Of a stretch of DNA of 64,000 bases, positions 1 to 64,000 are shown piece after piece. A model generated the notes under the pieces. It was given only the letters and a program-made list of their open reading frames with translations. It was not told the origin of the DNA and made no database searches. The translations under genes were made by a program, and so were the position numbers. This DNA is from Cyanidioschyzon merolae (Eukaryota). Location: NCBI GenBank assembly GCA_000091205.1, contig AP006497.2. The stretch is one strand, 5' to 3'. Position 1 is the first letter of the stretch; every line of letters begins with the position of its first letter.

Positions 1-1416
1 GGATCGCGACCCTATGCGCAGCGCTACGGCGGACACCAGTTTGGCGTCTGGGCAGGTCAGCTTGGCGACGGTCGTGTCATTGTGTTGGGTGAGTACCAGA
101 ATCGATGCGGCGAGACCTGGACCTTGCAGCTGAAAGGCGCAGGCAAGACGCCGTTTGCTCGTTTCGCTGACGGGCGCGCTGTCTTGCGCAGCAGCGTGCG
201 AGAGTTTCTCGCCAGTGAAGCGCTACATGCGCTGGGCATCCCTACCAGTCGTGCGTTGTCCCTTGTGGTCACTGGTGACAAAGTCGTGCGGGACATGTTC
301 TACGACGGCAATCCACGCGAGGAGCCTGGCGCTGTCGTTTGCCGTCTAGCTCCTTCATGGGTGCGGTTCGGAACGTTTGAATTGGCAACGGACTGGAATG
401 AGCTGGAGCTTCTTCGACAGCTTGCGGACGATACGATTGTACACCACTACCCGGCATTGCTGGCACATGAGCGTTCTCACGGCAAGCGCACATCCGCAGA
501 CTCGAGCCGCAGCGCAAGAAATGAAGAGTCCCAGAACCCAATGCCGTATCGAGCGCTTTTACTCCAAGTCGCTGAACGAACAGCTGCGCTAGTTGCCGGC
601 TGGCAAAGCGTCGGTTTCGTACACGGAGTCTTGAACACCGACAATATGAGTATTCTGGGGATCACCATAGACTATGGTCCGTTCGGCTTCCTGGACGCTT
701 ACATGCCCGAGTACACGCCGAATACCACAGATCTTCCGGGTCGACGCTATTGTTATGCGTTACAGCCGACCATCTGTTTGTGGAATCTGCTTCAACTAGT
801 GCGTGCATTCGAGCCGCTCACTGGTACTAATCTCTCGGAGGAAGTGAGTCAGACCTACGAGACCAAGTTTCGCGAAGAGATGTCCGCACGCCTGCGAGCC
901 AAACTCGGTTTCCAAACCTGGAACTCGGATGCAGATAATGGACTTGTGCGGGACCTGTATGAGCTCATGCGTCAGGATCGAGCGGATTTTACACGCACCT
1001 GGCGAGCGCTGTCCTGGTTAGAGCCCGTTGCTTGTCTACAGAAAAGCGACGCCTCGCTCGAGCCGCTGCTTCGCGTACTCCCAGAGCCGGTTCGAAAGAA
1101 TCCGGACCGACTTGAAGCTTGGCGACTTTGGGTGCAACGTTACGCAGAGCGTACGCTGGCCGAAGACAACTTTGATGGGACTGCACGGCGCAAGCAAATG
1201 CAAGCCGCGTCTCCCAAGTACATTCTACGGAATTACATGGCTCAGGTGGCAATTGAAAAGGCGGAAAATGAACAGGATTTTTCGGAAATCGAGCGACTGC
1301 TCAAGTTACTCGAACATCCGTACGCAGAACAGCCCGAAATGGAGGCACTCTACGATCGGGAGCCACCGACATGGTCCCAGCGCCTTGGAGTGTGCATGAA
1401 CAGCTGCTCTTCCTAA
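1..1416 (+). CDS. selO: Protein adenylyltransferase SelO/YdiU (UPF0061) family, 5'-truncated by the window edge
   Basis: The reading frame is open from nt 1; the first Met in the ORF track is at 82. The N-terminal residues 'YAQRYGGHQFGVWAGQLGDGRVIVLGE' match the conserved SelO 'HQFG…QLGDGRA' block. Later 'HGVLNTDNMSILGITIDYGPFGFLD' matches the SelO catalytic kinase-like core. Single uninterrupted 444+ aa ORF. Confidence 0.85.
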   Translation, partial: GSRPYAQRYGGHQFGVWAGQLGDGRVIVLGEYQNRCGETWTLQLKGAGKTPFARFADGRAVLRSSVREFLASEALHALGIPTSRALSLVVTGDKVVRDMFYDGNPREEPGAVVCRLAPSWVRFGTFELATDWNELELLRQLADDTIVHHYPALLAHERSHGKRTSADSSRSARNEESQNPMPYRALLLQVAERTAALVAGWQSVGFVHGVLNTDNMSILGITIDYGPFGFLDAYMPEYTPNTTDLPGRRYCYALQPTICLWNLLQLVRAFEPLTGTNLSEEVSQTYETKFREEMSARLRAKLGFQTWNSDADNGLVRDLYELMRQDRADFTRTWRALSWLEPVACLQKSDASLEPLLRVLPEPVRKNPDRLEAWRLWVQRYAERTLAEDNFDGTARRKQMQAASPKYILRNYMAQVAIEKAENEQDFSEIERLLKLLEHPYAEQPEMEALYDREPPTWSQRLGVCMNSCSS

Positions 1417-2530
1417 CAAATTAGGCGAAAAGGTGAGGTGTCTGGTTCGTGTACCCGATCGCATGGATAGACATCCACGGATGCCTATTGAAGCACCTGT
1501 AGGAATACTCCTACGAATACCTGCGCGGATACGGCTATGGACACAGGCATGTTCATGGGTGGCAATGGTTGAAGTGCACGATTCGTGCTGGAAACTGCCT
1601 GCAACCTGTCACGTTCACAGTGTGTTGTTGCAACTTGTTTCGCATGCGTCGCCAATGCCGCGTCCCGAGTTTTCTTTTTGTAAAGAACCGCTTTCACCGA
1701 ATACGGTTGGATGCGAATCTTGATGCTCTGGTGGATCATACGCCAGAGACTAGTGGGACCGCTGCAACTGTATATATTCTCAGGACGGCGCTGTTCGTCG
1801 ATCGCGTTTCCAGACACCACACCCGAGCAGTCCATATGATCAGTTCGCATCTATGGGTTCGCCCCGGAGACGCAACGCGGGAGACGTCTTTGCACCCGAT
1901 CCCATGGGTGAATCTGCATCCACCGAGAAAACCGAGTTGAGCGCTTACCTCGTACCGTTTAGGCGATCGCTTTTGAGATCCGATGCTAGCGGGGGTCGGG
2001 GTATCCGCTGACCTTTCTACGACTGGATGCCAGCGCTATGCAGCCTGAACCTCGTCGGAGCTGCTGCTTCGATCGCCATATGAAAACGTGAGATTCGATT
2101 CGTGCAAAGCCAACAAAGAGTCCATATGCAGAATACAAACTTTTCCTTCAGCAAAAGCAGCCTCTTGCAAGTAAGGATCTACGCGAGGTTTGTGGTGTAG
2201 GACCCGTACCTCATTCGCGCTGGGGCGTCTAGAGTGCTGGGGGTCTCCGAGGTGCCCCCGCTGCACGCTCCTGCCCTGCCGCCTGCGCTAAACAACACCT
2301 TTCATATACTGGGCACTCGCGCTCTCTCTACAGGTCCTTCGCTTCATTCATCAGCAAATATCCGCCTGAACGTTTGCCGGCACTGCAACACCAGACTTGG
2401 ATAACTGCATTCAATGAAAGAGTGACGCTCTTTTTCCAACGTAGAGCGCCACCAACCTACAACCGCGTCCTAACCTGCAGCTGTTGCAAGACGCCCTAAC
2501 GAGAGCATCTTCTGTACCGAACAATTTCCA

Positions 2531-2951
2531 TACCAGTGCTGCTCCCTAAGCGCTATCCTAACCCAGCGCACAGTGTCTTGAACGGTTTTGTGGTACGCAC
2601 TCGGAAACAGTTGGCGTACCAGTGCTGCTCCCTAAGCGCTACCCTAACCCAGCGCACAGTGTCGTTAACGGTTTTGTGGTACGCACTCGGAAACAGTTGG
2701 CGTACCAGTACTGCTCCCTAAGCGCTACCCTAACCCAGCGCACAGTGTCGTTAACGGTTTTGTGGTACGCACTCGGAAACAGTTGGCGTACCAGTACTGC
2801 TCCCTAAGCGCTACCCTAACCCAGCGCACAGTGTCGTTAACGGTTTTGTGGTACGTACTCGGAAACAGTTGGCGTACCAGTACTGCTCCCTAAGCGCTAT
2901 CCTAACCCAGCGCACAGTGTTGTTAACGGTTTTGTGGTACGTACTCGGAAA
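2531..2951. repeat. 86-bp minisatellite, about 4.9 tandem copies, each containing an inverted repeat GGTACGC…(15 nt)…GCGTACC and a CCCTAACCC motif
   Basis: Direct reading shows the unit 'taccagtRctgctccctaagcgctaYcctaacccagcgcacagtgtYKtKaacggttttgtggtacgYactcggaaacagttggcg' repeating at 2531, 2617, 2703, 2789 and 2875. The two ORF-track entries 2536..2721 and 2622..2807 give identical peptides offset by exactly 86 bp. The period is not a multiple of 3, so the repeat is non-coding. Confidence 0.9.
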
Positions 2952-3042
2952 CGCTCCAGTGGCCGCGTCAGCGTTCGCTGTCCACCTGTGTGCCAGCCCG
3001 TTCAACGAGTGCAGTTCTCTTTTTGAAGATAGAGGCTTCTTT

Positions 3043-5046
3043 ATGCTTCTATTCCAGTCTACACTGGTTCGAGTTTATGTTGTCCGGAGCCCGCCTCGCA
3101 ACCGACAACTGTGTCTCCGCGCTGACTCGAGTCAAGGACGACACCTCCTGGGAGCACGACCTGCACAGCAGACGACGACGACGACAACAACCACTACAAC
3201 TACAACTGCTGCGGCGTCGAGACCGATAACCAAGCTAACAGTATTGCGAGTACAGCAGCGTTTCTGGGAGCGCCATGGAAGCGCTCCAGCGCTGGCTTGT
3301 TCGCAGAGCCCGTTGCAGCCGCACCTGGGCGTCGGTGCAGAGGCTTGCACCCGGCAACGAATCTCAGACCTCAAGCCGAGCGTCGGTGAGCGCCTCCATT
3401 CAGCCTATTATACACGATTGCGGCAAGCTGTGGCGGTAGTTAGAAACTGGGTTTGTGTTGCAAGCGCGCTTCTCTTTGTCTACCTGAGTACCAGCGACCA
3501 GGTGGCCCTGGCGGCTGCCTCACTCGCCAATGGCATGCCTCAAGACCGTCTGGCTCTGGCAACGAGTACGCCCGTTCCAGATCGCTACCGAATTCTTTGG
3601 GAGCAGGCACTGGACATCATCACGAACCTTCACTACCAACCCGGTCAACATATCCATGCAGCCTCGTTAACCATGCCTTCGCACTTGCCGCCTACGCGTG
3701 CGTCCACGATCCCATGGGGATGCTCTCTGGGAACACGTGCCTCGACCTACGATGCCATTCGGATCCGACTCAGTGAATTGAATGATCCCTACTCACGTTT
3801 CCTGGAGCCGGATGAATTTGAGGCGGAACTGAATCCTTACCGGCGAGCTCGGAAGCTCAGCGGGGTCGGCATCATACCGGAGCGCAGTCCAAAAGGCCAC
3901 GGCACGCTGCGCGTTATAGCCGTTATTCCCGAGTCACCGGCTGAGGAGGCCGGAATCAACCCCGGCGATGAACTCGTTATGATTGACGATATTGTCGTCG
4001 AGCCTTCACCTTTGAACCCGATTCCTGTGACCCCCGATGAAGCGTTGGCGTTGCTGCGCGGCCCAGCGGGTACGCGGGTTCGTCTCACTGTGCGACAAAC
4101 GACAAACTCGTTGTCGTACGCTGATGCATCGCTGCAAGTAGCGTCAGCGTCCACAGCGCCGACCTCTATGATGCGTACATATACATTAACGCGGAGACCG
4201 CTTCTGGTAGCTCCGGCTGTCTACGGCCTTGTCGCCGCGGAGCCCACTTTCGGTTACATTCGCCTCCATACCTTCAACGCCGAAGCGACACGTATCGTCT
4301 TCGAGGCTCTGAACGCATTCAAGAATTCTAGCGATCGTTCGGCAGCGGCTGGTGTTATCCTAGACCTGCGCAACTGCCGAGGTGGCGTCTTCCAGGAAGC
4401 ACTGGTGATTGCTTCGATGTTCATCGCAAACCCCGATGCCGTACTCGTCTACACCGTCGACAGTCGGGGTATCGAGCGCGCACACCGGGTGCGTGACCAG
4501 TGGAACGGTTGGCCTGAAGCTCCTGCTGCCGCTGCTCGTACTCCTCGTACTCCTCCTGAGACGCTCGGGAGCGCGGCGTCGGCCCGGCATCCGCTGTACA
4601 ATGGCCCACTGGTGGTGCTCGTCAATGGTGCCTCAGCTTCCAGTAGCGAAGTGCTTGCGATAGCCTTGCGCGATCACGGACGAGCAGTGCTGTTGGGCAT
4701 GCCAACTTTTGGGAAAGCCCGCATCCAACACTACTTCCCGCTTTTGGACGGCTCGGCGATCGCGCTCACTGTCGGGGAGTTTCTCGGCCCGCAGCACGAA
4801 CGCCTCGCGGACCACGTCGGCTTAGTGCCGCAGGTCTCCTGCAACGCTGCACCCCGGAACTTTGCGCTCCTAGAGAGACACACGCCACCAGATGCCTGCA
4901 TCGCAGAGGCAGCTCAGCTGCTAAGCGAAGAACCCACGGGGTCATCGGCTACAGAGCCGGTGCCGGTCGGTGGCTCCGTGCGGTCTGCGTTCACATCCCG
5001 AAGCAGGTCCACTGAAACGACACTGTTGCCTCGGATCCAAACCTGA
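3043..5046 (+). CDS. ctpA: C-terminal processing peptidase (S41A, CtpA-like) with PDZ domain and a plastid/thylakoid-lumen-type N-terminal presequence
   Basis: PDZ segment 'GVGIIPERSPKGHGTLRVIAVIPESPAEEAGINPGDELVMID'. S41 core 'AAGVILDLRNCRGGVFQEAL'. Catalytic Ser/Lys blocks 'LVVLVNGASASSSEVLAIAL' and 'GMPTFGKARIQ' (near nt 4624-4725). The ORF-track start at 2848 lies inside the 86-bp minisatellite, so I prefer the first Met outside the repeat, at 3043. The N-terminus is R/S/T-rich and includes Thr12, followed by the hydrophobic stretch 'WVCVASALLFVYL' and an AxA site 'ALAAAS'. Confidence 0.8.
   Translation: MLLFQSTLVRVYVVRSPPRNRQLCLRADSSQGRHLLGARPAQQTTTTTTTTTTTTAAASRPITKLTVLRVQQRFWERHGSAPALACSQSPLQPHLGVGAEACTRQRISDLKPSVGERLHSAYYTRLRQAVAVVRNWVCVASALLFVYLSTSDQVALAAASLANGMPQDRLALATSTPVPDRYRILWEQALDIITNLHYQPGQHIHAASLTMPSHLPPTRASTIPWGCSLGTRASTYDAIRIRLSELNDPYSRFLEPDEFEAELNPYRRARKLSGVGIIPERSPKGHGTLRVIAVIPESPAEEAGINPGDELVMIDDIVVEPSPLNPIPVTPDEALALLRGPAGTRVRLTVRQTTNSLSYADASLQVASASTAPTSMMRTYTLTRRPLLVAPAVYGLVAAEPTFGYIRLHTFNAEATRIVFEALNAFKNSSDRSAAAGVILDLRNCRGGVFQEALVIASMFIANPDAVLVYTVDSRGIERAHRVRDQWNGWPEAPAAAARTPRTPPETLGSAASARHPLYNGPLVVLVNGASASSSEVLAIALRDHGRAVLLGMPTFGKARIQHYFPLLDGSAIALTVGEFLGPQHERLADHVGLVPQVSCNAAPRNFALLERHTPPDACIAEAAQLLSEEPTGSSATEPVPVGGSVRSAFTSRSRSTETTLLPRIQT
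3172..3207 (+). repeat. (ACG)4(ACA/ACC/ACT)8 trinucleotide run encoding Thr12 inside the CtpA presequence
   Basis: Direct reading: acgacgacgacgacaacaaccactacaactacaact, in frame with the CDS, giving 'QQTTTTTTTTTTTTAAAS'. Confidence 0.9.
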
Positions 5047-21889: not shown

Positions 21890-23252
21890 ACGATATTTCC
21901 ATACCCTACCATGTCCCGTGGCAGAAGTGCGAGTGACGCGTGTGACTGCGATATCCACTGGAGCAGCCCCAGAGACAGGTGTGGGTTCTTTGTGGATGCA
22001 CCTCCACGGATACGTCGATGAACTCTAAAGTGATGCGCTGGCATTCAGGTGCAGTGCGTTCGTGAAAGCGTGGGTTTTCTTTTACGATAAAGCGGTTCCA
22101 TGCTTACAACCCGATACCTGGCTATACCTGCATGCGAATACGATGGGCAGCGATCGCTCTTGTCTTTCTCATGAGCATCAAGTTCGGTTCATGCGATATC
22201 ACTCACACCAGTGTCTATGCGGTATCGAGGCAGCCCATCTGGAACCGCATGAACGCCTGCCCAGCTGAACGCCCGTGATGAAGTATGCGGAAGGTCACGG
22301 GCTCCCCGAACACCTCCTGTGACGTTATGCGAGGTTGAAAGACGCCTTGGCTAGCCACGAGTACGAACCGACGACGTGCGCGCCGTTGAGAGTGCAACGC
22401 TTCGGCGACCGCTGACGCGCGCCCTGGGCACTCGGTCCGCAGCTTGTCTCGGCTACAGTGCCCAGCGAGCGGCACGGTTAGCAGCGTTCAAGTCTATCCA
22501 GACTAGTTGAAGCGTTACGGAGCAACGTTCGGAGGTGCTCGCTCGAGAAACTCCTCCGGAAGCCGTCGGTCGCTAGTGCAAGCGCTATGTCTGACAGAGG
22601 GCATGTGGTCCATGAATGAAGGATACGACGCACTCCCCTCGGCTTGCTTCGGTGCTCTGAGCGTCTAGATGGGCGCTGACGCCATCATTGCATTCGTTGG
22701 TTCGTCTGGGGGCGTCCATAACGAGCACTGGAAAAGTTGAGAACCTGTATCTGCTTTCCGTTGAGGTCTTTGGCTCCGATCTCTTGATTTACAGGTGTGG
22801 TGACAGCCATGATGTCCTTAAACCCAACGTCCATGCCAACGCTAACGTCATTCTCATCATCCATACGGAACAGACGAGCATGAGTTCTGTCGCTTGGCCC
22901 AGGTCTGGGTACCACACACTGCATGCAAATGAATATTTCGTCAGTCACTTCTGTCCGCGTAAAATGCATTCCATTTGCTCCTTGTAAACGAGAAAACTTG
23001 AATGAGCTCTGTCAACGCCCATGGCGAAGCTGCTCGGATGCTTCCTCCTCTCTAGCGGAGACCAGTGGTAGCTCACTGAGGACACCAGCCAGCGCACTGC
23101 ATAAGTTTCTACACTGATACCATGAGCCTTGCTCTGCAAGATGGTGGCCACGTATCGACGTTACGCTTCCAGATGGCGAAGGTATTCGGTTTCGGTGGAC
23201 GGAATCTGCTTTGCTCCCGATGACTCTTTTCGGGGACACCTTGTAGCATGAG

Positions 23253-23891
23253 GTGCTCCAAAGACAGGCATCACGTTCAAAAGATCGTTGGAGTATCACG
23301 TTCACTGGTCTAATACCCAGACCATCATACTACGCATGGCCAATCTGGAGCGATGCTTGCTCTCGTTGCGACATCTCTTCCGAACTCGTAACCTTCTCGA
23401 TCTTTTCCGACACCAGCTCGTCATTTGCCCTTATCGACACACTAGGAATCGGTTCTATCAGTATGGGACTCGGAAACCTCTTTATCTCTACTGATACCAG
23501 CTCGTCATTTGCCCTTATCGACACACTAGGAATCGGTTCTATCAGTATGGGACTCGGAAACTTCTTTATCTCTACTGATACCAGTTCGTCATTTGCCCCT
23601 ATCGACACACACAAGGAATCCTTTCGACATGTCGCTGATTTCTGCGCCAGCCAGATTCTGGTGCAATTCGTAGAAAGCATGCCTCATGAAGCGCTCTATT
23701 TTAACCCGCATTCGTTTCTGGTTCCCGTAGTTCGTTTGCTGCCTGTCGGTACCGGCACTGGCGCATGTTTCTTCGGTGGCCGACGTGGCAGCACCACGCG
23801 TCAAGTTATGCCAGCAAGCGTTTGTGCAAACCCCGCATCCTACACTGACGCAGCGATGCATGTACCGCGCAGCACTCCAGTTCCCGCATGA
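23253..23891 (+). CDS. Hypothetical repeat-containing ORF (212 aa); coding status uncertain
   Basis: The ORF spans the 84-bp tandem repeat and translates to 'DTSSSFALIDTLGIGSISMGLGN(L/F)FIST' ×2.5. The period is a multiple of 3, so translation is frame-preserving. No known domain. Confidence 0.2.
   Translation: MLQRQASRSKDRWSITFTGLIPRPSYYAWPIWSDACSRCDISSELVTFSIFSDTSSSFALIDTLGIGSISMGLGNLFISTDTSSSFALIDTLGIGSISMGLGNFFISTDTSSSFAPIDTHKESFRHVADFCASQILVQFVESMPHEALYFNPHSFLVPVVRLLPVGTGTGACFFGGRRGSTTRQVMPASVCANPASYTDAAMHVPRSTPVPA
23405..23612. repeat. 84-bp tandem repeat, about 2.5 copies
   Basis: The 'ataccagctcgtcatttgcccttatcgacacactaggaatcggttctatcagtatgggactcggaaacYtctttatctctactg' unit recurs at 23412, 23496 and 23580 with a few substitutions. 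Confidence 0.85.
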
Positions 23892-25589
23892 GGGTTTGAT
23901 CGAGAAATTTCAGAGGAAGATGGATAACTGGTAGCGCTGTGTCGGAAACTCCTCTGCACAGTTGCTCGGCGAGATGCATCATGAAAGAGAGACTGGACGT
24001 GGCTTGCCTGCGTAACGAGCTACATGATGTGGGGCGGTTTTCTATATTCCTTGTCATCGAAGTTGCTCCCGATTTGCGTGTTTTAGCATAGAAGCCTTGA
24101 GAATGTTTTGAGTTTGGTTTTTCGGCTCCGACGGTTTTTCCTTGCTGAGATTTCTCGTCATGTCTTCTGGAGGATCGTTCGCTTCTTTGTGTGGCTCGGT
24201 TCAACGCCTTTTCGTTTTCTCGGCAAAAGTCGTATGGACGTGGTCCCGGGAATCAAGCACCGTTTCTTTTATTCAGACGCAGACGCGTTCGGTGGCCGTG
24301 CACCTCAAACGCTTCTACGATCTGTACGTATCTTCTCCTTCGACCGCATATTTTCGTCATCCGTCTTCGTCGCGCGCACGCCGACGTCCCGCAGCACTGC
24401 TTTCCGCTCCGCACAGCGCACGAGAGCAGGCAAGCAACATACGAGTTCAGTGCTGCTGAATATAGAGAACGACCTGTCGAAGCACGGGGTCGTCTATTTG
24501 ATCGACTTTTCAATGGATCCATGATTGTGCATATGGTGTTTGCCGACAAAGAACACGCCCTCGACTGGACTGAATCAGGGAGGCTGAGCTAGCCCGTAGA
24601 GCAGCGCATCCCATGCTGCAGCTGCGTACACCTTGACCGCTTTTGAGTGATGGAAACCGACGCTTCTCAAAGCCGGACATAGCAATATGGGATCATGGAG
24701 CCACCGAGTGCTTCACTGAGGGATAATCTTTTGTGCGATCCTTCCGTTTGAGCAAATCACAGGCGACTACATGATTGCATTGCCGCCAGCGCTGATACAT
24801 CGTGAATTTCGCTTGCCGCTCCCGCGCGAAGAGCGGTTCGCTCTTCTTTGCGTACCAGTGAACAAGTCTACCATTGGTCGTGAGTGAGGTCTCATCGGCT
24901 GAGACGGACGTCTGTCCCTCTTGTGATAAGCGTTCGCGTTTCAGAGCGAACTCCGTGGTGTCTTGTTTATGGTGCGATAGTCTCCCGTAGAGGCCTGCAT
25001 ATTTTCTTTGACGTTTGCATCATTTCATCACTGTTCCGGTCAACGATAGGAAAACTTCATATCCTGTATCATCTTTGATCGTATTTCTTAGAGAATAGTA
25101 GGGGACGGATTGAATAGACAAAGCAACAGTCATGTATGCATTGTATAGCGAGATGTGTATGTAGACTGCTCGACGCTGAGCATGACAACGACGACAAGGG
25201 CGGCATATCCACCTGTTTCCCATGCAATGACTGACTTGTACAAGAAAGGTCCTCAGCTCGCAGGCTAGCTCCTGCACCATGCAACCTTTCCGTGACATCG
25301 CTCTTTAATCCACGGGTTCCATTCCGTTTGTTGCATGCCTGCGAGAAAACAATCAAAAAATGCATCCGGGTACAGGAATTCCAGTACTCATGGCTCCGCG
25401 TACAATCGTAGATAACGATGCTGCCGCCATCGCCTTTCGATCTCGATCACCCTGCATCGCGGTGGTGTCGCAGTCGATAAACTTCAGACTTGGAGCTCCC
25501 AGAGCGCTATCGAGTATCCTTGGTTCGTGTGGAAACGATCCGAACCCCCTAAACACGAACTAGGAGGGCGTATGTGGGTCATCTTGACC

Positions 25590-33473: not shown

Positions 33474-35162
33474 CAGGCGTCAGTGTCCGCGTCGCCGAGC
33501 ACGCTGTGTACGCTTCTCGAACCTGAAAGCGACAACACTGGACTCGTGGCGATGCGTGCCGCACGGTGACGCAGTATCCGTAGCTATCCAGAGAAGACGC
33601 GCTTTCTGTTGGCTAGCGTGCGGCCTAGAGCCAACGTCGCTTCACTATCGTTTCCGTACCTCGTTTACCGCCTGGTGCGCGTGGCTGCCTTTCCACTTAA
33701 GGCGCATGAGCAGCGCTTGCCTTTCGTCCCTAGAGTTGTACTTCGCCGGTTACGTCCGTCGAGATCAATGAAGATCACCCCTTTTTCTTCGCTTTGAAAC
33801 GCAACTGCCTGTCGGAAGCGCGCTTTCTCAGTTTAGAAAGCCCCGATCAGTGACGTCTAACTAGAATCCAACATCTCAGCATGCAACTACCAGCTCAGGC
33901 GCCTGAGGGAAACGTCGTAGCATCCGCGCGACAATTCAGGAAACGTTCTGCGATGATGAAAGGTCAACAAATACCCAATAGCAGACGCCTTCCGGTCTTT
34001 TTGACTGGCCGCCTGCGGTCCGTTTCAGTTCATCCTTGCACAGTACGAGTCGGGGTGGCTGTCCCATAAAGTCGGCCCACCTCAGCTTCTCGGGTCTCGA
34101 CCTGAGTACCGCACATCGCTTGATATGGATGGCGGCATTTGGAGCCTCGGTTCACGAACTCCTTGCTTTCTTTTTTTGACTCGTGTTGAACGCACCAGTG
34201 CAAAGAATGCTGGAGTTCGTGCCCTCTCTGCCACCGCAGACTCGTCATTGTTCCGTGGGGCAAACACAGTTCGTCTCTTGTCTTTCCTATTTTGCACGTT
34301 CTTCTTCATCCGATGAACACAGAGAAGAGGTTTTTTCGTCTTTTTCCGGTACCCGGCGATGACGGTCCCGCAGGATCCCCAACTCTCATGTCCATACCTT
34401 TTACTTGGATTTTGTATTTCTTCATGTGAGCGCACTTCGAACGCCTCTGCAATCAACCGAGAAGAAGCATTTGATGACACGCTCCTCGAGATGGAACACC
34501 ATCGAGGTGAAAGACTAGAAAAGCTCCCGGAATGCGAATGGCTAGTATCCATTCGGAGACATAGAACGTGCTTTTCTGAACGCATGTAACAGGTATTTTG
34601 CGTTTCTTGGTGCTACGGAGGGAATCACCATACATGCCAGGCGCCCAGTGAGTGCATGATCCTACACCTCGGATCGAGTCAGGCGAAGTGTATCCAAGGT
34701 TCGAAAGCTTCTACACGGCATCGCGTGCGCTGCTTTCGTGACGTGCTTGCTCCAATGCACGCTGTTCGGAAAATGGAGGTCACATTGCACAGCTGATGCT
34801 GCCTTGGTTAGAAAAGTGCTCTAGGGCGTCGAGTGCGCACCTGGTTTGCTGCTGGTGCTTGCGAAGTTCTCGTTTGTACCGCTATGCTCGCGCAGCGTTG
34901 CGCTTTTGAGGAAGGCAGCCCTAAACCAGACCTGGACGACGATTTAAAACATTTCAGAGAGAGTCTTGTCGAGCGACACCTATGACGCCTGTTAATGCTC
35001 AATGGTTTGCCTAGGCGCTTGCCCGACCGGGAACGAACGTCTCACTCGAAAGGGCGCCTTCAGTCTTGACCAGTTGCGCTGGCAGAATACATGTCGCTGA
35101 AGCATCACCCCGTGCACCGACTTGACGCCATCTCGAGGCGTTTATCGTGCACAATACATGTA

Positions 35163-41786: not shown

Positions 41787-44700
41787 AATTTAGCTTGTAA
41801 AGGCACTGAAGCGGAGCTCGCTGACCATCGATGACCTGCAGCAGCATGGAAGAGAAACGGTCTTTGCAAGGTGCACATGAAGAAGCCGATTACCCGCAGA
41901 GTCGACGACGGGACTTGCAGGCGAGACTCGCGAAGCGCCAGCCCTGGTAGCACTCGTCTTATTTCGAGTCTGGGATACTGGGAACAATGGAAAAAGGATT
42001 CGGGTGTCGTTTCGTGAAACGTTGCAGTAACTCGTTGTATGTCGGAGTTGTATGCAGAGCGGTACATTCGGGAACTACTGTAAGAGGACGTTGTTTTGTT
42101 TGTTCTTTTTTCTCGCGGATATTCTACACAAGGATTGCATGCTGTATATTGGAGAAAGATTGCATGAAGACACGATACGATGCTTGATGGATTGCGGAAA
42201 TCGGCCTCGCTTGTACATGTCAGTTATTCTACGGGATGCAGGTGGTTGAATTGCCGGTCACGCCGTCCTTGTTCTCAACGTCGTGCACCGAAAACGGGAC
42301 TTGTAAAAATCGGTGTACACGACACTCTCCCTATCAATCCAGTAAAAGGCGTGCATTCTCGGAGAAAAGTCTACAATAGAAGCAACAGGATGTGAGGTTT
42401 CTGTACCGCTGACACGAACGTGGATCAAGAGACGCGAAAGCACAGAGAATGATGTGCACATTTATGGGCATGCGTCGCGCCTTGAACAAAAAGCATATAA
42501 TGTATGTTACACGAGCAAGCGATTGATTGCTGCAGGAAGGACTGGTGCGGGTCTCAGTGTATGCGGCTTGATTCTAGACAAGTGGTATTCCTGTATGCAC
42601 GTACTCGGAGTCGCGCAATCTGCAATGCGGAAAAAAATGAAACACGCGAGCGCAGTGACAGCACCAGAAGTCACAGTGATTCTACTATAAGGGCACCAAC
42701 GGAACACCGAACGCTCAGGAATGTTCGACGCCTCATGTTTCACTGAAGCTCTCCACGTGGTTACCCATTCTCGCTTTCTTTGGTCCTGTTCATGGAGAAC
42801 GATGCTTTCCCGAACATAAAAGCGGTCATGGAATACACAGCTGAGTTTTGCGCTGAGCTGCCCTTCTTTCAGACGTTTTCTTCTCGGTTCAATCGAGTCG
42901 AATCCATAGCGTTTCTGCCTTGATGGAGCGTCTGCACCGGCGCGTTTGGTGCTATTGTAGACGCTCACGGCAGGCTGAGCGCACAGTAGTACGGATGCAA
43001 CGACCGGTCTCTTCAGGGGGAAGGGTTGCGGTGGCTGTTGCACCTCGCATGACTCGCGTGGAATCATGACTGCCCGCCCCTATACTGATAACAACCGCGG
43101 CTTTGGGTATTCCAGCAAGTGGAAATGCGGGGAAATCAAGTAAATTCCATCCAAAGGCGTCGTCTTTGTCGTCTAGCGCTATTTCTATGCTCATGGATCA
43201 ATTTACAACTCATTCGGACCGAAGGAAACGTTCTTCGACGAGTCTTTCTCTACTTTTTCCTGTCCTGAACCACAGCGCAGCTTCGAATCCTGTGCACGGG
43301 AGGGAGCGAAACGGCGTGCATCTATTCTTGGGCGTACGCACAACCGAGACAACGATGAAACCCGACGTGAGGAATCCTTGGTACATGCACAGGAGAGGCG
43401 AGGTGCCGCACCAACGGCCATCAAAGGTGTCTGATTCGCGCTAAAACATGAATATGGAGTGCAGTGAACGCATTGGTGCCACTCTGTTGAATTATAGTGT
43501 AAGAGAAAATTCTACGCGACAAATCAGAGCAAGATAATCCTAGAGTGCAGACGGGTGAACACATCGAGGAAAAAATGTTTGCACATGAAAGAAAGTTCTG
43601 AAACTATTAGAAAAGGAACTCCCTGTGAAAGCTCACCAACGGGAAGATCGCTTCAACTGGTGAGATGCAGAACGCCTTTCGAGCATCTTTCTCATAGATA
43701 GCTCACATCGCCTCTCTCGCGTTGGCGCATACCGTCAAGCTACTGGTCGTGCGAGTTCGGGGCAGAGGGCTTTCAGCTGTGCAGTTTATTCTGGAATTTT
43801 TCAATCAAATCGTCGTACAAGTACCGGTGCTCAGGCAGAGGATGCAATACAACCCGATCGCCGGGTCAGGGATTTGCAAAGACGCTCCTCTGAATCCCTT
43901 GACAGGTCGCCGTGCTAGCCCGGCGATCGGAGTATCTACTGCGCCGGTGCCGAAAAGTTTCATACCGATCTCAAAAAAACTGCATGAAATCAGGGTTCAT
44001 GTCGAGCGCTTCGAGAGTCGCGCTCTGTTGCCGTTGGAAACTCACTGTACTGGCACCGGGAAGCAGGGACCGTTGCAAGAGATTCTAGGTTTCAGACAGT
44101 ACATCAATGTCCAAATGGCCTATGCGGACGAATTGTGGCAAGCGTACCCGCGATCAAGCAGAAACTGCCGACTGTTCCAGTTCTACAACGGTAAGAGGCG
44201 TGAACTCGTCAGCTTGTTCAATGAGCTGGAAGAAAAAATCATCGATAACTCGCAACGTTTGGTGTTCGTCAAGAGAGCTGGACGTACTGCAGTGCACAAA
44301 GGCTGCGCTCCTGCGTCATCGACTTGAACGCATGATGCGTACATGAACCAATGCTGCACGTTTCCCATCGATGGGTTTACGACGGTATAGACGCTCGACG
44401 AGCACATGAAGACGCTGAAACAGATAGGAAAGAAAAACGTGAAACGGAGACGGATGCAAGAGATGGTGTTTGGTTGTCGGAGCAAACGTCAGATGGCTAG
44501 AGAATCGATGGTGAGCTGGTTCTGATGATATGATTCCATGAGCAAGGATGTGCTCGAGGACATTCTAAACATTGATCTCAATGCCTCTATCAACCATTCG
44601 AAATGTCTCGTACTTTTGAAGTGTCTTGAGGCTTCGCCTCGAGAGAACATTCAAGGAAATCATTCGGTGTTCAATGTGGATGTGATGCTGAAATGCTGCA

Positions 44701-59819: not shown

Positions 59820-60671
59820 CTAGAGGAAAATCCAGGGCGATATGTCAAAATCGACGCCGCCTAAACATGGTACCGTAAACTGCAGCACCAATGCGACAAC
59901 AAGCGGTATAAGCAGATTGTCGTCCAAGGCGAAGGGAAACCATCGAAGTGGCAAGGTCCTCTGCGGCGACGGCGTAAGCCATTCCGCGAGCATCGCCGCA
60001 GCGCTCGGTACCAAGCAATTCAGCCAGAGACAGAGCGTGTTCCCGGGACGGAGACTGCTCGCACGGAACACGACGAACATAGTGAGCGTCGCGGCTGCGA
60101 AACCCGCCACGCTCCCTACCAGCGACTTGTTGTGCCGAGCACGGGTAGAATGATCTAGTTCTGGTATATAGCGTCGCACCATATTTCCCACTAGTGCAGC
60201 AACCGGATCTGAAACGGACAGAACGACAATGGCTATGATTGCGACACCCTTGGGGTAGAGAGCGATAGTTATTAGCGCTCCAAGTATAAAGGGCACCATA
60301 CCGCTGAACCGGTGCTGCTCTTGGCTGCGCATAAAAGGTCCCATCAAAACCATAACGAGGGCGTTGAGCCGAGGGTTGAGGAGTCTCATTATTTCCAAGA
60401 AGAGCTGAGCAGTCCAAAGCACAGCCAAAGTTGTCAAGAAGACTCGTTTTGAAGAGAACGAGCGGAACGCCAGCACGAGCAAGTAGCCGTTCAAGAAGTG
60501 GAACAAGCGACGGTTCCAGTGCAGTGCCTGGGTCTCCGCCAACCTTTTCCGAACGGTTGCGCTCCCTCCAACGGCCGACACTGCTGGACTTGTTCGGCGC
60601 TGACGCCTCTGGGCGGGCGCCGCGTCACCACCCATGGTGTCTTCTCTGTTGCTGACCAGGAGCATCGTCAC
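59820..60671 (-). CDS. Small polytopic membrane protein of the CTP-dependent polyprenol-kinase family (phytol-kinase VTE5 / dolichol-kinase / DGK1-like), 283 aa
   Basis: About 6 hydrophobic segments (e.g. 'LFHFLNGYLLVLAF', 'VFLTTLAVLWTAQLFL', 'MVPFILGALITIALY', 'VAIIAIVVLSV'). The C-terminal conserved-looking block 'VSDPVAALVGNMVRR…HNKSLVGSVAGF' resembles the 'GDxxAxxxG…K(S/T)xEG(S/T)xA' signature of this family. Assignment rests on motif resemblance only. Confidence 0.5.
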   Translation of the reverse strand: MTMLLVSNREDTMGGDAAPAQRRQRRTSPAVSAVGGSATVRKRLAETQALHWNRRLFHFLNGYLLVLAFRSFSSKRVFLTTLAVLWTAQLFLEIMRLLNPRLNALVMVLMGPFMRSQEQHRFSGMVPFILGALITIALYPKGVAIIAIVVLSVSDPVAALVGNMVRRYIPELDHSTRARHNKSLVGSVAGFAAATLTMFVVFRASSLRPGNTLCLWLNCLVPSAAAMLAEWLTPSPQRTLPLRWFPFALDDNLLIPLVVALVLQFTVPCLGGVDFDISPWIFL

Positions 60672-61024
60672 CGCCGTACACAGTCGAACGCTGCCGACCG
60701 TGTACAGTGGTGGCTAGCGACCCGCCCTAGACGAAACGTCCCCAACTGACGTGCAGCCGCCTCCGAGCCGCTGTCGACCGGCCACCTGCTACTGCGTCCA
60801 TTTGTGTCTCATTTCTTTCCGACGTTTAGAGGTTGTCCAACAAAATGCTCTCGTGGCCACTCTGGAGGTGTGTTCTCCAGCACCGCACATTTCTTTATAT
60901 TGATAACAGCGATAAAGTCTCGGTTAACAAACTCCATACAATTCTCCCTGTTGGTTGTTGTACTTACTAGTGCACCAAGTCCTCGAATTTTCGCCCTCCT
61001 TTCCATTTGCTCTTCCGTCAGCGC

Positions 61025-61468
61025 TCAGTACTTTTGTATATCATCAGGGCTCCTCCGACGCTTTTCCATCTCGACCCCCTGAAGTGTACACCCCAGTTCA
61101 TGGTGTGTATACGATGTTCGGAACTCATCTTCGGATGTTGTAACGAAACGCCGTGGACACTCCTTGTACACCCTCGTCGTTGGAGATGACGTAGTCTCTT
61201 TCTTAGGCGCACAGCGCCCGGCCCCATACGCTACTACGAGCCTCTGACGTTCATCCTCCTCCAAGGTGCCCAACTGATTGAAAAAGTTGGCAAACGCCCG
61301 CTGTTTCCCAGCATATAGATTCATTCGCAAACGAACCACCGGGGCTTTGTATACTCTTCGCACACTTGCTCCGAATGAGCGACGCGAACCTCCGATGAAC
61401 ACCCGAAAAGCTTCAGAGCCCGCTCTGCGGGTAGTCAACTCTTTCATAGCTTCCAGGTGCTCTCTCAT
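61025..61468 (-). pseudogene. Short ORF (147 aa) with a degenerate TnpB/Fanzor(OrfB)-like C-terminal signature; possible relic of an IS605/IS607-OrfB-type element
   Basis: 'LVVAYGAGRCAPKKETTSSPTTRVYKECPRRFVTTSEDEFRTSYTHHELGC' resembles the RuvC-II-to-zinc-finger junction of TnpB/Fanzor proteins ('…GdW…kg.pPsPtk.L…VdE(F/Y)xTSK.C..C'). The Zn-finger cysteines and RuvC-III are absent, so the ORF would be truncated or decayed. It sits in the low-GC subtelomeric block. The call is pattern-level only. Confidence 0.2.
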
Positions 61469-61918
61469 TTCTGCAATCCACGTCTCAGTTATCTTCCTCG
61501 AACTCGTGATACCCGCTACTCGATAATTCCTCGCTCAAGAGAACCTCAAAAGACGCATACATTACTGATGTAAGTCGCCGTCGATGCAGTCTGCCGCACG
61601 CTTGGGAACAGCAATGGTTATGATATTCGTGTTCCAGGGGTTAAGGCTGACGACAAAGTCGTTCCCGTAGGGATATACATCCAGTGGCCCGCCTTCCTTT
61701 TTTCGTGTTTCGGCAAGTTCGATAACGCAGACGGGATAGCGCGAAGTGCCTGCATCCGCTGAGAGTGTCAATATTTGGATACCGCATCGTAAAAGATTGT
61801 CCCCGTGAATGCCTTTTTTTGGCCGGTTTGGGGCGCATGAAATCGAAGATATTCTTCCAGTAGGTGTCCTGTCCTCGCCGGTGACCTCTTTGTTTCTTAC
61901 ATCGAGCTGAGGGTAGAT

Positions 61919-62719
61919 CTATTTCATGAAGGCGTAAAGGACTCTCGAGTCGATACTCAAAGGATATGACTTGAACTCGCGTAAACGAACAGCAATTAAG
62001 CGAATCTGGAGAAGCTTCTCAATGGCGTTTCTCCCATCGGTCATTTTTTCCACATTCAGCTCCATGTCGGCCTTGCGTTCGAGTTCTCGGTCCAAAACCA
62101 TGAAGTAGGGCAGGATGAGGGGGTAATACCACTCTTCGTCTGTTTGGTCATATCTGACAGTTTTGTCGTGGGCTGACAAGCCCCAAGACCGAACGATGCT
62201 TTTAAATAGTCGAGCGGATAACAGAAGCCTCATTCATTCTCCTCCGTGACGTCCTCTTGTCGACGAATTTGATATACAGTTCACGCTGGCGATCGTTCTT
62301 GATACCATCGATGATTGCCCGCATAACTTCGCGAAACTGGCCCGGGTACAGCGCAAAGACGGCGCATATCATGAAAAAAAGACGTTTAAGATCGTATGGT
62401 TTCTTACAATCGTGAGGCACATCATTGCACTATATACGTAAATATCTGCGTCACACCTGTGTCGAGCACCGTTGAAGCGGAATTTTGCGTAATTTTTTGG
62501 TGAGGCATGCACTTGCTCGTTTCTCCTCGATGTTTGCCCATTAAAAAGAGTCAGATGGTTGATGAAATTCTTATTGAAAAATTCTTCCGAAAACATCACT
62601 TCTGCGATGTGCGTTAAGTCGCGATGCAGCTCGCTCTCCAAATGCCTCAGTCCTAAAGAAAAAGTACAAACATTCCTGGAGTGAGAAACTACGCAGTTTC
62701 TGATACCGTCTCGCAACAT
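61919..62719 (-). pseudogene. Three overlapping minus-strand ORFs in three frames (62369..62719, 62202..62420, 61919..62233) that look like one frameshift-disrupted gene of unknown function
   Basis: Consecutive ORFs overlap by 51 and 31 nt on the same strand. All three are lower-GC with similar amino-acid composition (K/R/E/F/Y-rich globular-looking). No domain recognised. Confidence 0.3.
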
Positions 62720-63984
62720 TCAGCCGTACGGATCATTGATATGTGGGAGACGAGAGGATTCCACACCCATCTCGTCGTACAGACGTCCCAAATGCAGCCA
62801 TCGACGTAAGGCACCCCATTTTCCTTCTTCTTCTCTTCCTGACCTTTTTCACTAGGCACTGTGACTCGTTTCCTTCTGACATCCGGCAACAACGACCAAC
62901 AAAAACCCACTATCTCCAGTTGCATAGCTCTAACTTTTTTTCGAGAAAAACACATTGTACGCTGCTGTTTCGACCGCGAGAATTAGTTGAACACATTTAC
63001 AGGAAGATTGAAACGCCATTGAAGCCAACACTAAAATTTGCTACGTTCGGATAGCATATAGAACTGGCCCCGATACAGCAGTCGCTCAAGAAGAGGTCAT
63101 TAACACGTTCCCCTTGATTGGCGAGACGCACGTGGTGGAATATGACGGCTGGAGTCCGGGAAGCGTTACCAGGGAGCACTATACAAAAAAACAAAAAAGA
63201 GACAATGTCCAAAAACGCGATGCCAAATACGAAGGCCACCTACTGTAAACATTGAAAGGAAGAAGTATTTGGGTATGGTCAAACAGTTACATTTAGGCGA
63301 GAGGTATCCGAGCGCGAAAATCTAATCGCGTGTACTCCGTGTGACCTTTAGTGGAGAGTGATGTGACGCACCTTGGTATCTCAGCCGAAACAAAATTGAT
63401 TATGGGACTAGGAGCGGGCATTCTGCGTCTGAGCGTTAACTTCGTCCCGGTGGACTAATAGCACACAGCACCACGCTACCGCGGGCAATAGATCCTTTAG
63501 AACAGTTTGGAGGCTGCCAAGAAAGCATATGACCCCCGTATCTCATGTTGCATGAACCAAGCAACTCCAACGCGCTCCATGGAATCCAAGAGCTGCTCTG
63601 TTTCCAGAATGCATCCCCAAGAGAGAGAGAGATGCTACGGCGGATGCCAGACAGGCTTAGGGCGTACAATCGAAGCGTAAAACGACCAATGCCGATGCAC
63701 GTGACTAAAAAGTGTGGGAAGGTACAGAAATAGTCAGGCTTAACAAAATACATCCCCAAAACAATGTCGATCCGACAATATCGGTCACCTGGTCAGAGGA
63801 CAGGATCTGTCGATCAAAAAAAAGCCAGGCGTGGAATGGAAAAGCCTAAGGGCTCCGGAATGATAAATGTCTATATACCACTCACGTACGCGCCAAAAAC
63901 GTAACGCCGGAGAAAAAACCCTAACGAATCTGGAAGGCTACCCTTCATAATCACAGATGCTATCGCGCTGAGAACATGGTATGT

Positions 63985-64000
63985 ATGGGGGAATGGGGGG
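63985..64000 (+). repeat. Telomere-like terminal repeat (T)ATGGGGG-AATGGGGGG at the window end
   Basis: The last 16 nt 'atgggggaatgggggg' equal about 1.8 copies of AATGGGGGG, the telomeric unit I recall for Cyanidioschyzon merolae. The window is truncated here, so the extent is unknown. Confidence 0.45.

Follow-up and report, generated by a model that had tools for sequence, protein, structure and literature searches.

The closest described relative of the sequence discussed here is CMe-1A, a repeat found in Cyanidioschyzon merolae, a red alga. It encodes CMe-1, the single Fanzor1 family that Bao and Jurka reported from this organism in 2013 (Mobile DNA 4:12; PMC3627910). As described there, CMe-1A is present in about 150 copies with a 3169-bp consensus, has one open reading frame (ORF) encoding a 734-amino-acid (aa) protein, and lacks terminal inverted repeats (TIRs); its target site duplications were left undetermined. 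The 5' 635 bp of the element are 95% identical to a separate repeat, TE-N2_CMe (PMC3627910). The subject of this article is a decayed copy of CMe-1A in a stretch of 64,000 nucleotides of C. merolae DNA (contig AP006497.2), the whole of which is referred to below as the window. An earlier note on the window had singled out a 147-aa ORF near its right end as a possible relic of a TnpB/Fanzor-type nuclease in a subtelomere.

A second line of literature concerns an interspersed repeat that Nozaki et al. described in 2007 (BMC Biol 5:28; PMC1955436), with an average size of 3.2 kb and 253 copies making up about 5% of the C. merolae genome. It is transcribed and contains a truncated ORF with weak similarity to WSV486 of white spot syndrome virus (WSSV) (BLASTX E=1e-5 to 4e-2; PMC1955436). 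Mikulski et al. (2017; PMC5405695) name this element the “WSV repeat.” Are the two repeats the same? Because their size, host, and link to WSSV agree, the 253-copy WSV repeat presumably consists of CMe-1A plus related subfamilies; a Fanzor1 of the WSSV genome itself is among those listed by Bao and Jurka (PMC3627910). The earlier note had thought such an element worth documenting in a red alga, a suggestion overtaken by the papers of 2007 (PMC1955436) and 2013 (PMC3627910). The finding is already known: the element in the window is dead and ordinary, one copy of a repeat family already in the literature.

A DECAYED CMe-1A COPY AT A CHROMOSOME END

The preferred reading, to which a probability of about 95% is assigned, is that the near full-length element on the minus strand (Table 1) is an old, inactivated CMe-1A insertion, that the 147-aa ORF within its pseudogene is open by accident, and that the copy is most likely inert. 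Where in the genome does it lie? Two large ORFs of the window match CMO350C and CMO351C of C. merolae 10D exactly, and the window ends in telomere repeats, so the stretch forms the right-hand end of that strain's chromosome 15. The repeat unit, AATGGGGGG, is the one published for C. merolae (PMC1955436), and only about 175 bp separate it from the 5' end of the element. The suspicion of a TnpB/Fanzor-type relic in a red-algal subtelomere is thus borne out by the alignment to CMe-1A, the pseudogene, and the nearby telomere.

TABLE 1 Coordinates of the CMe-1A copy, its parts, and other features of the window
Feature	Position	Strand	Basis or remark
Near full-length decayed CMe-1A copy	60687..63811	-	Consensus 5-3153 of 3169; 74.6% identity, 53 indels (local alignment)
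5' non-coding part of the copy	63192..63811	-	Consensus positions 5-635; alignment to consensus
Fanzor1 (CMe-1) frame remnant, start to stop, pseudogene	60727..62925	-	734 codons; codon mapping
Element 3' tail past the stop codon	60687..60726	-	Alignment to consensus
147-aa ORF (CMe-1 residues 489-635)	61025..61468	-	BLASTP 66% identity, E=5e-62; ORF listing
TGA ending the ORF	61025..61027	-	Point mutation of consensus GGA (Gly636); codon mapping; this strain's copy only
Compensated frameshift within the ORF	61337..61394	-	+1 at 61394, -1 at 61337; indel list
RuvC-I remnant SLNPWNTNI (consensus GADPGNTNI)	61622..61648	-	Codon mapping
VVAYGAG strand, Gly at the putative site of the RuvC-II glutamate of canonical TnpB	61217..61237	-	Codon mapping
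EDEFRTS (consensus VDEFRTS), candidate alternative RuvC-II Glu followed by [TS][TS]	61112..61132	-	ORF translation, codon mapping
RuvC-III motif NRDFIAVINI (consensus NRDFNAAINI)	60896..60925	-	In the ORF's frame, downstream of its TGA
Telomere repeat (ATGGGGG AATGGGGGG)	63985..64000	+	At the window end
Divergent Fanzor1-like relic	22688-24204	-	Family HMM positions 6-413; N-terminal half through RuvC-I (VGMDVGFKDI)
Divergent Fanzor1-like relic	43662-44657	+	Family HMM positions 52-158 and 438-605
Short CMe-1A-derived fragment	~33996-34517	-	Consensus nt 788-969 and 2892-2959, 160 bp apart; between CMO350C and CMO351C
ORF of near-perfect tandem ~31-aa units (DTSSSFALIDTLGIGSISMGLGN(L/F)FIS)	23253-23891	+	Adjoins or overlaps the 22-24 kb relic

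The CMe-1 protein and CMe-1A consensus used for comparison are those in the additional files of Bao and Jurka (the consensus being Additional file 2; PMC3627910). By blastn, the consensus matches the window at 72.8% identity over 3056 columns, and the local alignment to it summarized in Table 1 gives a slightly higher value, counted over the aligned columns. The copy fits the traits of its family in being collinear with the consensus, in having the single CMe-1 ORF, although with a broken frame, and in lacking TIRs. An inspection of the flanks for TIRs, as the earlier note had proposed, came out empty: a scan of positions 60500-64000 found none joining the element ends and only short internal pairs.

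How badly has the copy decayed? All 735 codon positions can be mapped, and 432 of them (59%) match the consensus. By tblastn, CMe-1 residues 7-704 and 705-734 align to the copy, with the final 30 codons shifted into another frame. Seven premature stops interrupt the CMe-1 frame (at codons 69, 242, 336, 387, 457, 466, and 636), and 17 indels fall within the alignment of the ORF. The description of the 147-aa ORF as a degenerate fragment therefore holds as to degeneracy, but not as to its being an isolated fragment. Some of the damage is young. The metagenome copy L003, 98.2% identical to that of the window, shares five of the seven stops; at the other two, newer sites, the window has TAG (61921) and TGA (61027) where L003 has GAG and GGA. 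Because two of the seven stops are absent from so similar a copy, the comparison shows decay continuing after the two strains diverged. Bao and Jurka mention intact copies (PMC3627910); among 85 loci examined here, none is a complete full-length copy, the longest ORFs being 722 and 747 aa. Metagenome copies (loci L005-L084) often begin at consensus position ~640-700 or 2093 rather than at 1, and the first of these start points fits TE-N2_CMe being a separate 5' 635-bp repeat (PMC3627910).

Because its frame is repeatedly broken and its RuvC-I aspartate is lost, the window copy, as sequenced, cannot encode a nuclease. It is now most likely inert subtelomeric repeat DNA and is probably silenced. 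The histone mark H3K27me3 lies on about half of C. merolae repeats and is enriched at subtelomeres (PMC5405695).

THE 147-AA ORF

The ORF lies where the earlier note had placed it and contains the peptide strings quoted there. Its alignment to the published Fanzor1 protein CMe-1 spans the whole ORF, and because a match of this length and strength was found (Table 1), the resemblance in motifs is, at the level of sequence, homology and not chance. In a collection of 5.8 billion proteins, 135 relatives of the ORF were found, with lengths of 90-258 aa and with JGI/ENA metagenomes as their only sources. No protein in that collection is identical to the ORF, no relative found there comes from NCBI, and none of the 135 carries a precomputed Pfam domain. 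A phmmer search of the PDB with the ORF turned up no relevant match.

In the longer relatives, the sequence goes on past both ends of the ORF, with VGADPGNTNI upstream and VNRDFNAAINIRRC downstream. Both extensions are present in the window in the same reading frame, cut off solely by in-frame stops. When the relatives are searched against the window by tblastn, unbroken matches run from ~62125 to 60680, and weaker, paralogous matches appear near 44 kb, 34 kb, and 22.7 kb.

What, then, sets the limits of the ORF? On the preferred reading, it is a part of the pseudogene's interior that is open by accident, covering CMe-1 codons 489-635, and its upstream bound is the first in-frame ATG past earlier stops, its downstream bound the recent change of GGA to TGA. 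As mentioned, L003 still has GGA at this position, so the TGA is a recent, strain-specific mutation; in L003, a 219-aa ORF (P0001) continues as far as the RuvC-III motif. Within the ORF, a +1/-1 pair of indels scrambles about 19 codons, with the ancestral EVRVAHWEALWEEYTKPRW read out of frame as GGSRRSFGASVRRVYKAPVV. Family fragments match the alternative frame of this stretch by tblastn.

CATALYTIC MOTIFS AND THE ZINC RIBBON

The motif by which Bao and Jurka define the family is D-X(125,275)-[TS][TS]-X-X-[C4 zinc finger]-X-RD (PMC3627910). How much of it can be recognized in the window copy? In RuvC-I, the candidate catalytic Asp has been replaced by Asn, and the first D of the motif is therefore absent; across 47 relatives, conservation in the Asp-Pro-Gly columns is 90% or more. 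The VVAYGAG strand probably corresponds to the canonical position of the RuvC-II glutamate. The DEFRTS block to which the earlier note had drawn attention is present as EDEFRTS and supplies the [TS][TS] of the Fanzor/TnpB motif. It aligns with IDEFRTS of PpFz and LDEYKTS of SpuFz, and among the 47 relatives the E and R columns of the consensus block, VDEFRTS, are at least 90% conserved. In Fanzors, the canonical RuvC-II glutamate has given way to Gly or Pro, and an alternative glutamate lies about 45 residues downstream (PMC10530073). In the CMe-1 clade, the conserved Glu of VDEFRTS follows the Gly of VVAYGAG by 33-37 residues, and the two together would match the relocated RuvC-II glutamate of Fanzors.

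The RuvC-III motif and the zinc finger had both been recorded as missing from the ORF. The former is not missing from the locus, for it follows in frame just past the TGA that ends the ORF. The latter is truly absent, but its absence does not mark the degeneration of this particular copy. No CxxC...CxxC lies between DEFRTS and RDxNAAxNI in the window copy, the CMe-1 consensus, or the 47 clade members, of which only the most distant, P0235, keeps one CPTC. In the CMe-1 clade, a conserved VRGLLWCxST stands in place of the second half of the finger. Because 47 relatives at 24-57% identity share the absence, it is, on the evidence of their alignment, a trait of the clade. CMe-1 was nevertheless listed as a Fanzor1 by Bao and Jurka (PMC3627910).

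In its ancestral form, the active site would have consisted of the Asp of GADPG, the relocated Glu of VDEFRTS, and the Asp of NRDFNAAINI. By analogy with other Fanzors, an intact CMe-1 would cut DNA with its RuvC domain under the direction of a bound guide RNA, for which the 3' end of the element would be the template, and the nuclease would help CMe-1A to persist or spread.

MEMBERSHIP IN FANZOR1

Several results weigh against reading the locus as a copy of a Fanzor1 element. (i) Direct scans are empty. Hmmscan of the ORF against Pfam and NCBIfam (E<=10) returns no TnpB/OrfB match, and Pfam and NCBIfam scans of full-length CMe-1-type proteins and of the family consensus, which represents the C-terminal 314 aa by majority rule, return no significant TnpB/Fanzor match. 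With a cutoff of 26.3 bits, the family consensus (13.5), CMe-1 (11), and P0151 (12.1), the longest CMe-1-type protein, all remain below threshold for PF07282, and a narrower profile, made from CMe-1 fragments only, matches no PDB sequence. (ii) The C4 zinc finger, part of the defining motif, is lacking from the CMe-1 clade. (iii) The window copy, at ~73-75% identity to the consensus, is more diverged than the metagenome copies (82-90%) and than CMe-1A copies as published (~80%; PMC3627910). (iv) Signs of a structured RNA at the 3' end are faint. The 3' 225 nt of the consensus fold only modestly better than shuffled sequences (z=-2.5), and canonical pairing is 0.792 observed versus 0.787 expected, with double changes not in excess, a comparison of low power in copies that decay neutrally. 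Had the direct profile scans of the ORF been taken alone, the TnpB/Fanzor hypothesis would have looked refuted.

Because the direct scans and the narrow profile are empty, membership rests on a broader profile, a transitive link, and the fold. Searches that started from CMe-1 and, in a second round, from an 11-sequence alignment gave about 50 full-length proteins, and a profile was built from the 47 relatives described above. An exhaustive HMM search yields 3,729 cluster representatives at E<=0.001. Against the sequences of the PDB, the 47-sequence profile matches PpFz (6.9e-19), SpuFz (8.3e-13), and GtFz (6.3e-5), in alignments that cross the DPG, DEFRTS, RGLLxC, and NRDxNA motifs. The profile check suggested in the earlier note thus fails when applied to the ORF directly and succeeds when applied through its relatives.

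The transitive link runs through PF07282. The relative P0215, which matches the family profile at E=9e-154, stands above the PF07282 threshold (27.1 versus 26.3 bits; E=4.8e-6), and five further relatives match at the same position with E=7e-5 to 0.02 (P0217 at 23.4 bits). The weak match of the family consensus (E=0.084) sits exactly on the RuvC-III segment RDxNAAxNI. For the fold, the intact relative P0190, about 40% identical to P0151, was modeled in place of the decayed window copy. Its AlphaFold model (pLDDT 86.4, pTM 0.84) was compared with the PDB by Foldseek, and Fanzor1 structures take the first seven places (E=2e-17 to 4e-14, TM up to 0.70); the next are Cas12o, Cas12f, Cas12b, and Fanzor2, at E>=2e-5. 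By broad profile, transitive PF07282 link, and predicted fold, the CMe-1 family can be placed firmly within Fanzor1.

Selection has left its trace as well. Over the RuvC half of about 80 copies, the first two codon positions are better conserved than the third (0.92-0.96 versus 0.81-0.86), and past selection on the family at the protein level is shown, as read from the codons. Many relatives (P0151-P0234) carry a precomputed PF26935.1 match, which the local Pfam-A scan did not report. P0151 contains four tandem acidic units of ~27 aa (…QEVQDNDLIVDAAKHEENK…) at residues ~400-510, directly upstream of RuvC-I, versus a single copy of the QEVQDNDLIVDAAKHEENK unit in the consensus.

What does this mean? 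The finding itself, one of ~150-250 decayed copies of a known repeat, brings no new biology. It serves as calibration, in that a motif guess made from raw sequence (DEFRTS) proved correct where Pfam and NCBIfam scans miss the family. Since standard scans miss the ORF, the consensus, and the full-length proteins, annotation pipelines would leave the family unlabeled.

THE 3' END OF THE ELEMENT

In Fanzor and TnpB systems, the scaffold of the guide RNA ends in the 3' tail region of the element. Can a trace of such an RNA be seen here? Folded against shuffled sequences, the 3' end of the window copy gives z=-0.7, no positive sign of structure. RNAalifold returns an empty consensus structure for the 3' ends of the copies, a test of low power under neutral decay, and pair counts on the minimum free energy structure of the consensus reveal no covariation beyond independence or shifted controls. 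No Rfam family matches anywhere in the window at gathering thresholds. Over the last ~180 nt of the CMe-1 ORF, conservation at the third codon position rises slightly.

The exact end of the element can be reconsidered. Among 61 copies, homology breaks off ~10 nt beyond the published consensus end. Because a semi-conserved TTKRTKGTG is found in many copies ~10 nt past that end, the true 3' boundary may lie slightly beyond 3169. The 3' junctions of one subfamily show a perfect 7-bp terminal hairpin, CGTTCGA-CTT-TCGAACG, followed by GGCG.

Another feature of the 3' end is what lies next to it. Forty-seven loci with distinct 3' flanks, forming 43 independent flank groups, were surveyed with mechanically called ORFs. 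At 24 of them, a co-oriented ORF of 150 aa or more has its first ATG no more than 110 bp downstream of the CMe-1A 3' end, compared with 4.2% for random non-ORF points of window positions 1-58000, a small control. The nearest ORF is co-oriented at 31 loci and opposite at 15. In the window, the gap is ~6 bp to ORF 59820-60671 on the minus strand, directly downstream and co-oriented, whose 283-aa product matches no Pfam family; at L001, 18 bp separate the 3' end from a gene for a 675-aa hydrolase. The pattern could reflect a target preference for the 5' ends of genes, or retention there as a leader or promoter. Considerably more tentative is the joint proposal that CMe-1A 3' ends come to precede co-oriented ORFs through such targeting or retention and that the clade contains functional Fanzors lacking a complete C4 zinc ribbon; it is perhaps possible, but the less probable outcome. 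Its second half follows from a clade of 3,729 representatives, without a complete C4 zinc ribbon and showing purifying selection at the codon level, which would therefore include functional Fanzors without a supposedly strict motif. Should they hold genome-wide, the ribbon-less clade and the position of the 3' ends may be of interest to Fanzor biology.

ALTERNATIVE READINGS

Could the ORF instead be a live gene, a short domesticated piece of a Fanzor with a host function? It does start with ATG, the orthologous copy in a related strain is open and longer (P0001, 219 aa), and the repeats are reported as transcribed (PMC1955436). However, the ORF is apparently no annotated C. merolae gene, given that no identical protein was found and no relative came from NCBI. 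It would hold one of the three catalytic motifs, and a compensated frameshift has garbled some 19 of its codons. Its end is a strain-specific nonsense mutation, and the decay around it is uniform, with 7 stops and 53 indels in the copy. A gene of this kind is scarcely credible. A viral origin, in which the sequence is an integrated fragment of viral DNA and not a cellular transposon, draws on the name “WSV repeat” (PMC5405695), on the weak BLASTX similarity to WSV486 behind it (PMC1955436), and on the occurrence of Fanzors in large DNA viruses (PMC3627910, PMC10530073). The similarity to WSV486 would be explained by a shared Fanzor1 gene and not by a viral origin of the repeat, as WSSV has a Fanzor1 of its own (PMC3627910). 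Moreover, hundreds of dispersed copies fit one 3.17-kb consensus with defined ends (PMC3627910), no further viral genes are seen in the element, and the proteins closest in structure are cellular Fanzor1s from fungi and a cryptophyte, all of which makes integrated viral DNA very improbable.

A dead copy might also be retained for a use unrelated to the protein, with its 3' end serving as promoter or 5' leader for ORF 59820-60671 or with the repeat nucleating H3K27me3 at the chromosome end. As described above, ~6 bp separate the projected end of the element from the first ATG of the ORF, co-oriented ORFs of at least 150 aa follow within 110 bp at 24/47 loci versus 4.2% of random points, and both the marking of about half of the repeats and the subtelomeric enrichment of H3K27me3 (PMC5405695) agree with the idea. 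This support is purely positional, though, from mechanically called ORFs and a control taken from one 58-kb stretch, and some of the loci are orthologous, which reduces them to 43 independent groups. The same pattern would arise, with no function involved, from a preference for insertion into the 5' regions of genes, and retention of the copy for such a role is unlikely. The reading of the locus as an old, inactivated CMe-1A insertion remains the preferred one.

OTHER REMNANTS IN THE WINDOW

The window contains more distant traces of related sequences (Table 1). The relics at 22-24 kb and 44 kb were considered as copies of CMe-1A but left unclassified, since neither has a DNA-level match and their protein identity to any family member is 33-36%. 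The former has the motif VGMDVGFKDIMAVT in ORF 22685-22969 and could represent either a second lineage or a far older copy. In the latter, the RuvC-II/III half is ~33% identical to CMe-1, and the middle is apparently deleted; the G+C content around it is lower (0.49). The short fragment near 34 kb derives from CMe-1A, and because segments far apart in the consensus match only 160 bp from each other, an internally deleted derivative is suggested.

COMPARISON WITH KNOWN SYSTEMS

How does the CMe-1 family compare with the wider group of RuvC nucleases? Fanzor2, represented by ApmFz2 of a mimivirus (9B0L), belongs to the same superfamily and has the same catalytic rearrangement (PMC10530073), but the fold match to it reaches just E=2e-3, with TM 0.20-0.28. 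Fanzor2 proteins are shorter and are carried by IS607-type elements together with a serine recombinase (PMC3627910); none was seen in the CMe-1A copy, where no search aimed at recombinases was made. With the prokaryotic TnpB proteins of IS200/IS605 and IS607 elements and with Cas12f, the family shares the RuvC core, the xDxG of RuvC-I, the TS before the TNB insertion, and RDxNAAxNI. P0215 passes PF07282, the Cas12f1-like TNB family, and Cas12f and other Cas12 proteins are the next fold matches after Fanzor1, although these are much weaker (E ~1e-4, TM 0.2-0.35). Unlike TnpB, CMe-1 has its RuvC-II glutamate replaced and relocated, as in Fanzors (PMC10530073), and it has a long N-terminal extension and a eukaryotic nuclear host.

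The solved Fanzor1 structures, SpuFz1 (8GKH), PpFz (9CF0/9CF1), and GtFz (9CER), have the same fold as the P0190 model, with TM 0.53-0.70 over ~680-800 columns, at a sequence identity of just 12-15%. A difference lies in the zinc-binding set: PpFz has CPKC after the TS motif where CMe-1 has THHELG, which leaves the set incomplete in the CMe-1 clade. As for the repeats of C. merolae itself, the WSV repeat, compared by description, agrees in size, truncated ORF, dispersed copies, and transcription, although Nozaki et al. (2007) and Mikulski et al. (2017) did not recognize its kinship to TnpB and Fanzor. In the case of CMe-1A, the window copy differs from the consensus in being ~74% identical to it (~80% being typical), in being non-coding, and in having lost the RuvC-I aspartate. 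In everything else compared, it agrees with the published element: it is collinear, has the same single ORF with the motifs xDPG, VVAYGAG, DEFRTS, and NRDFNAAINI, is free of TIRs, and resides in the same host.

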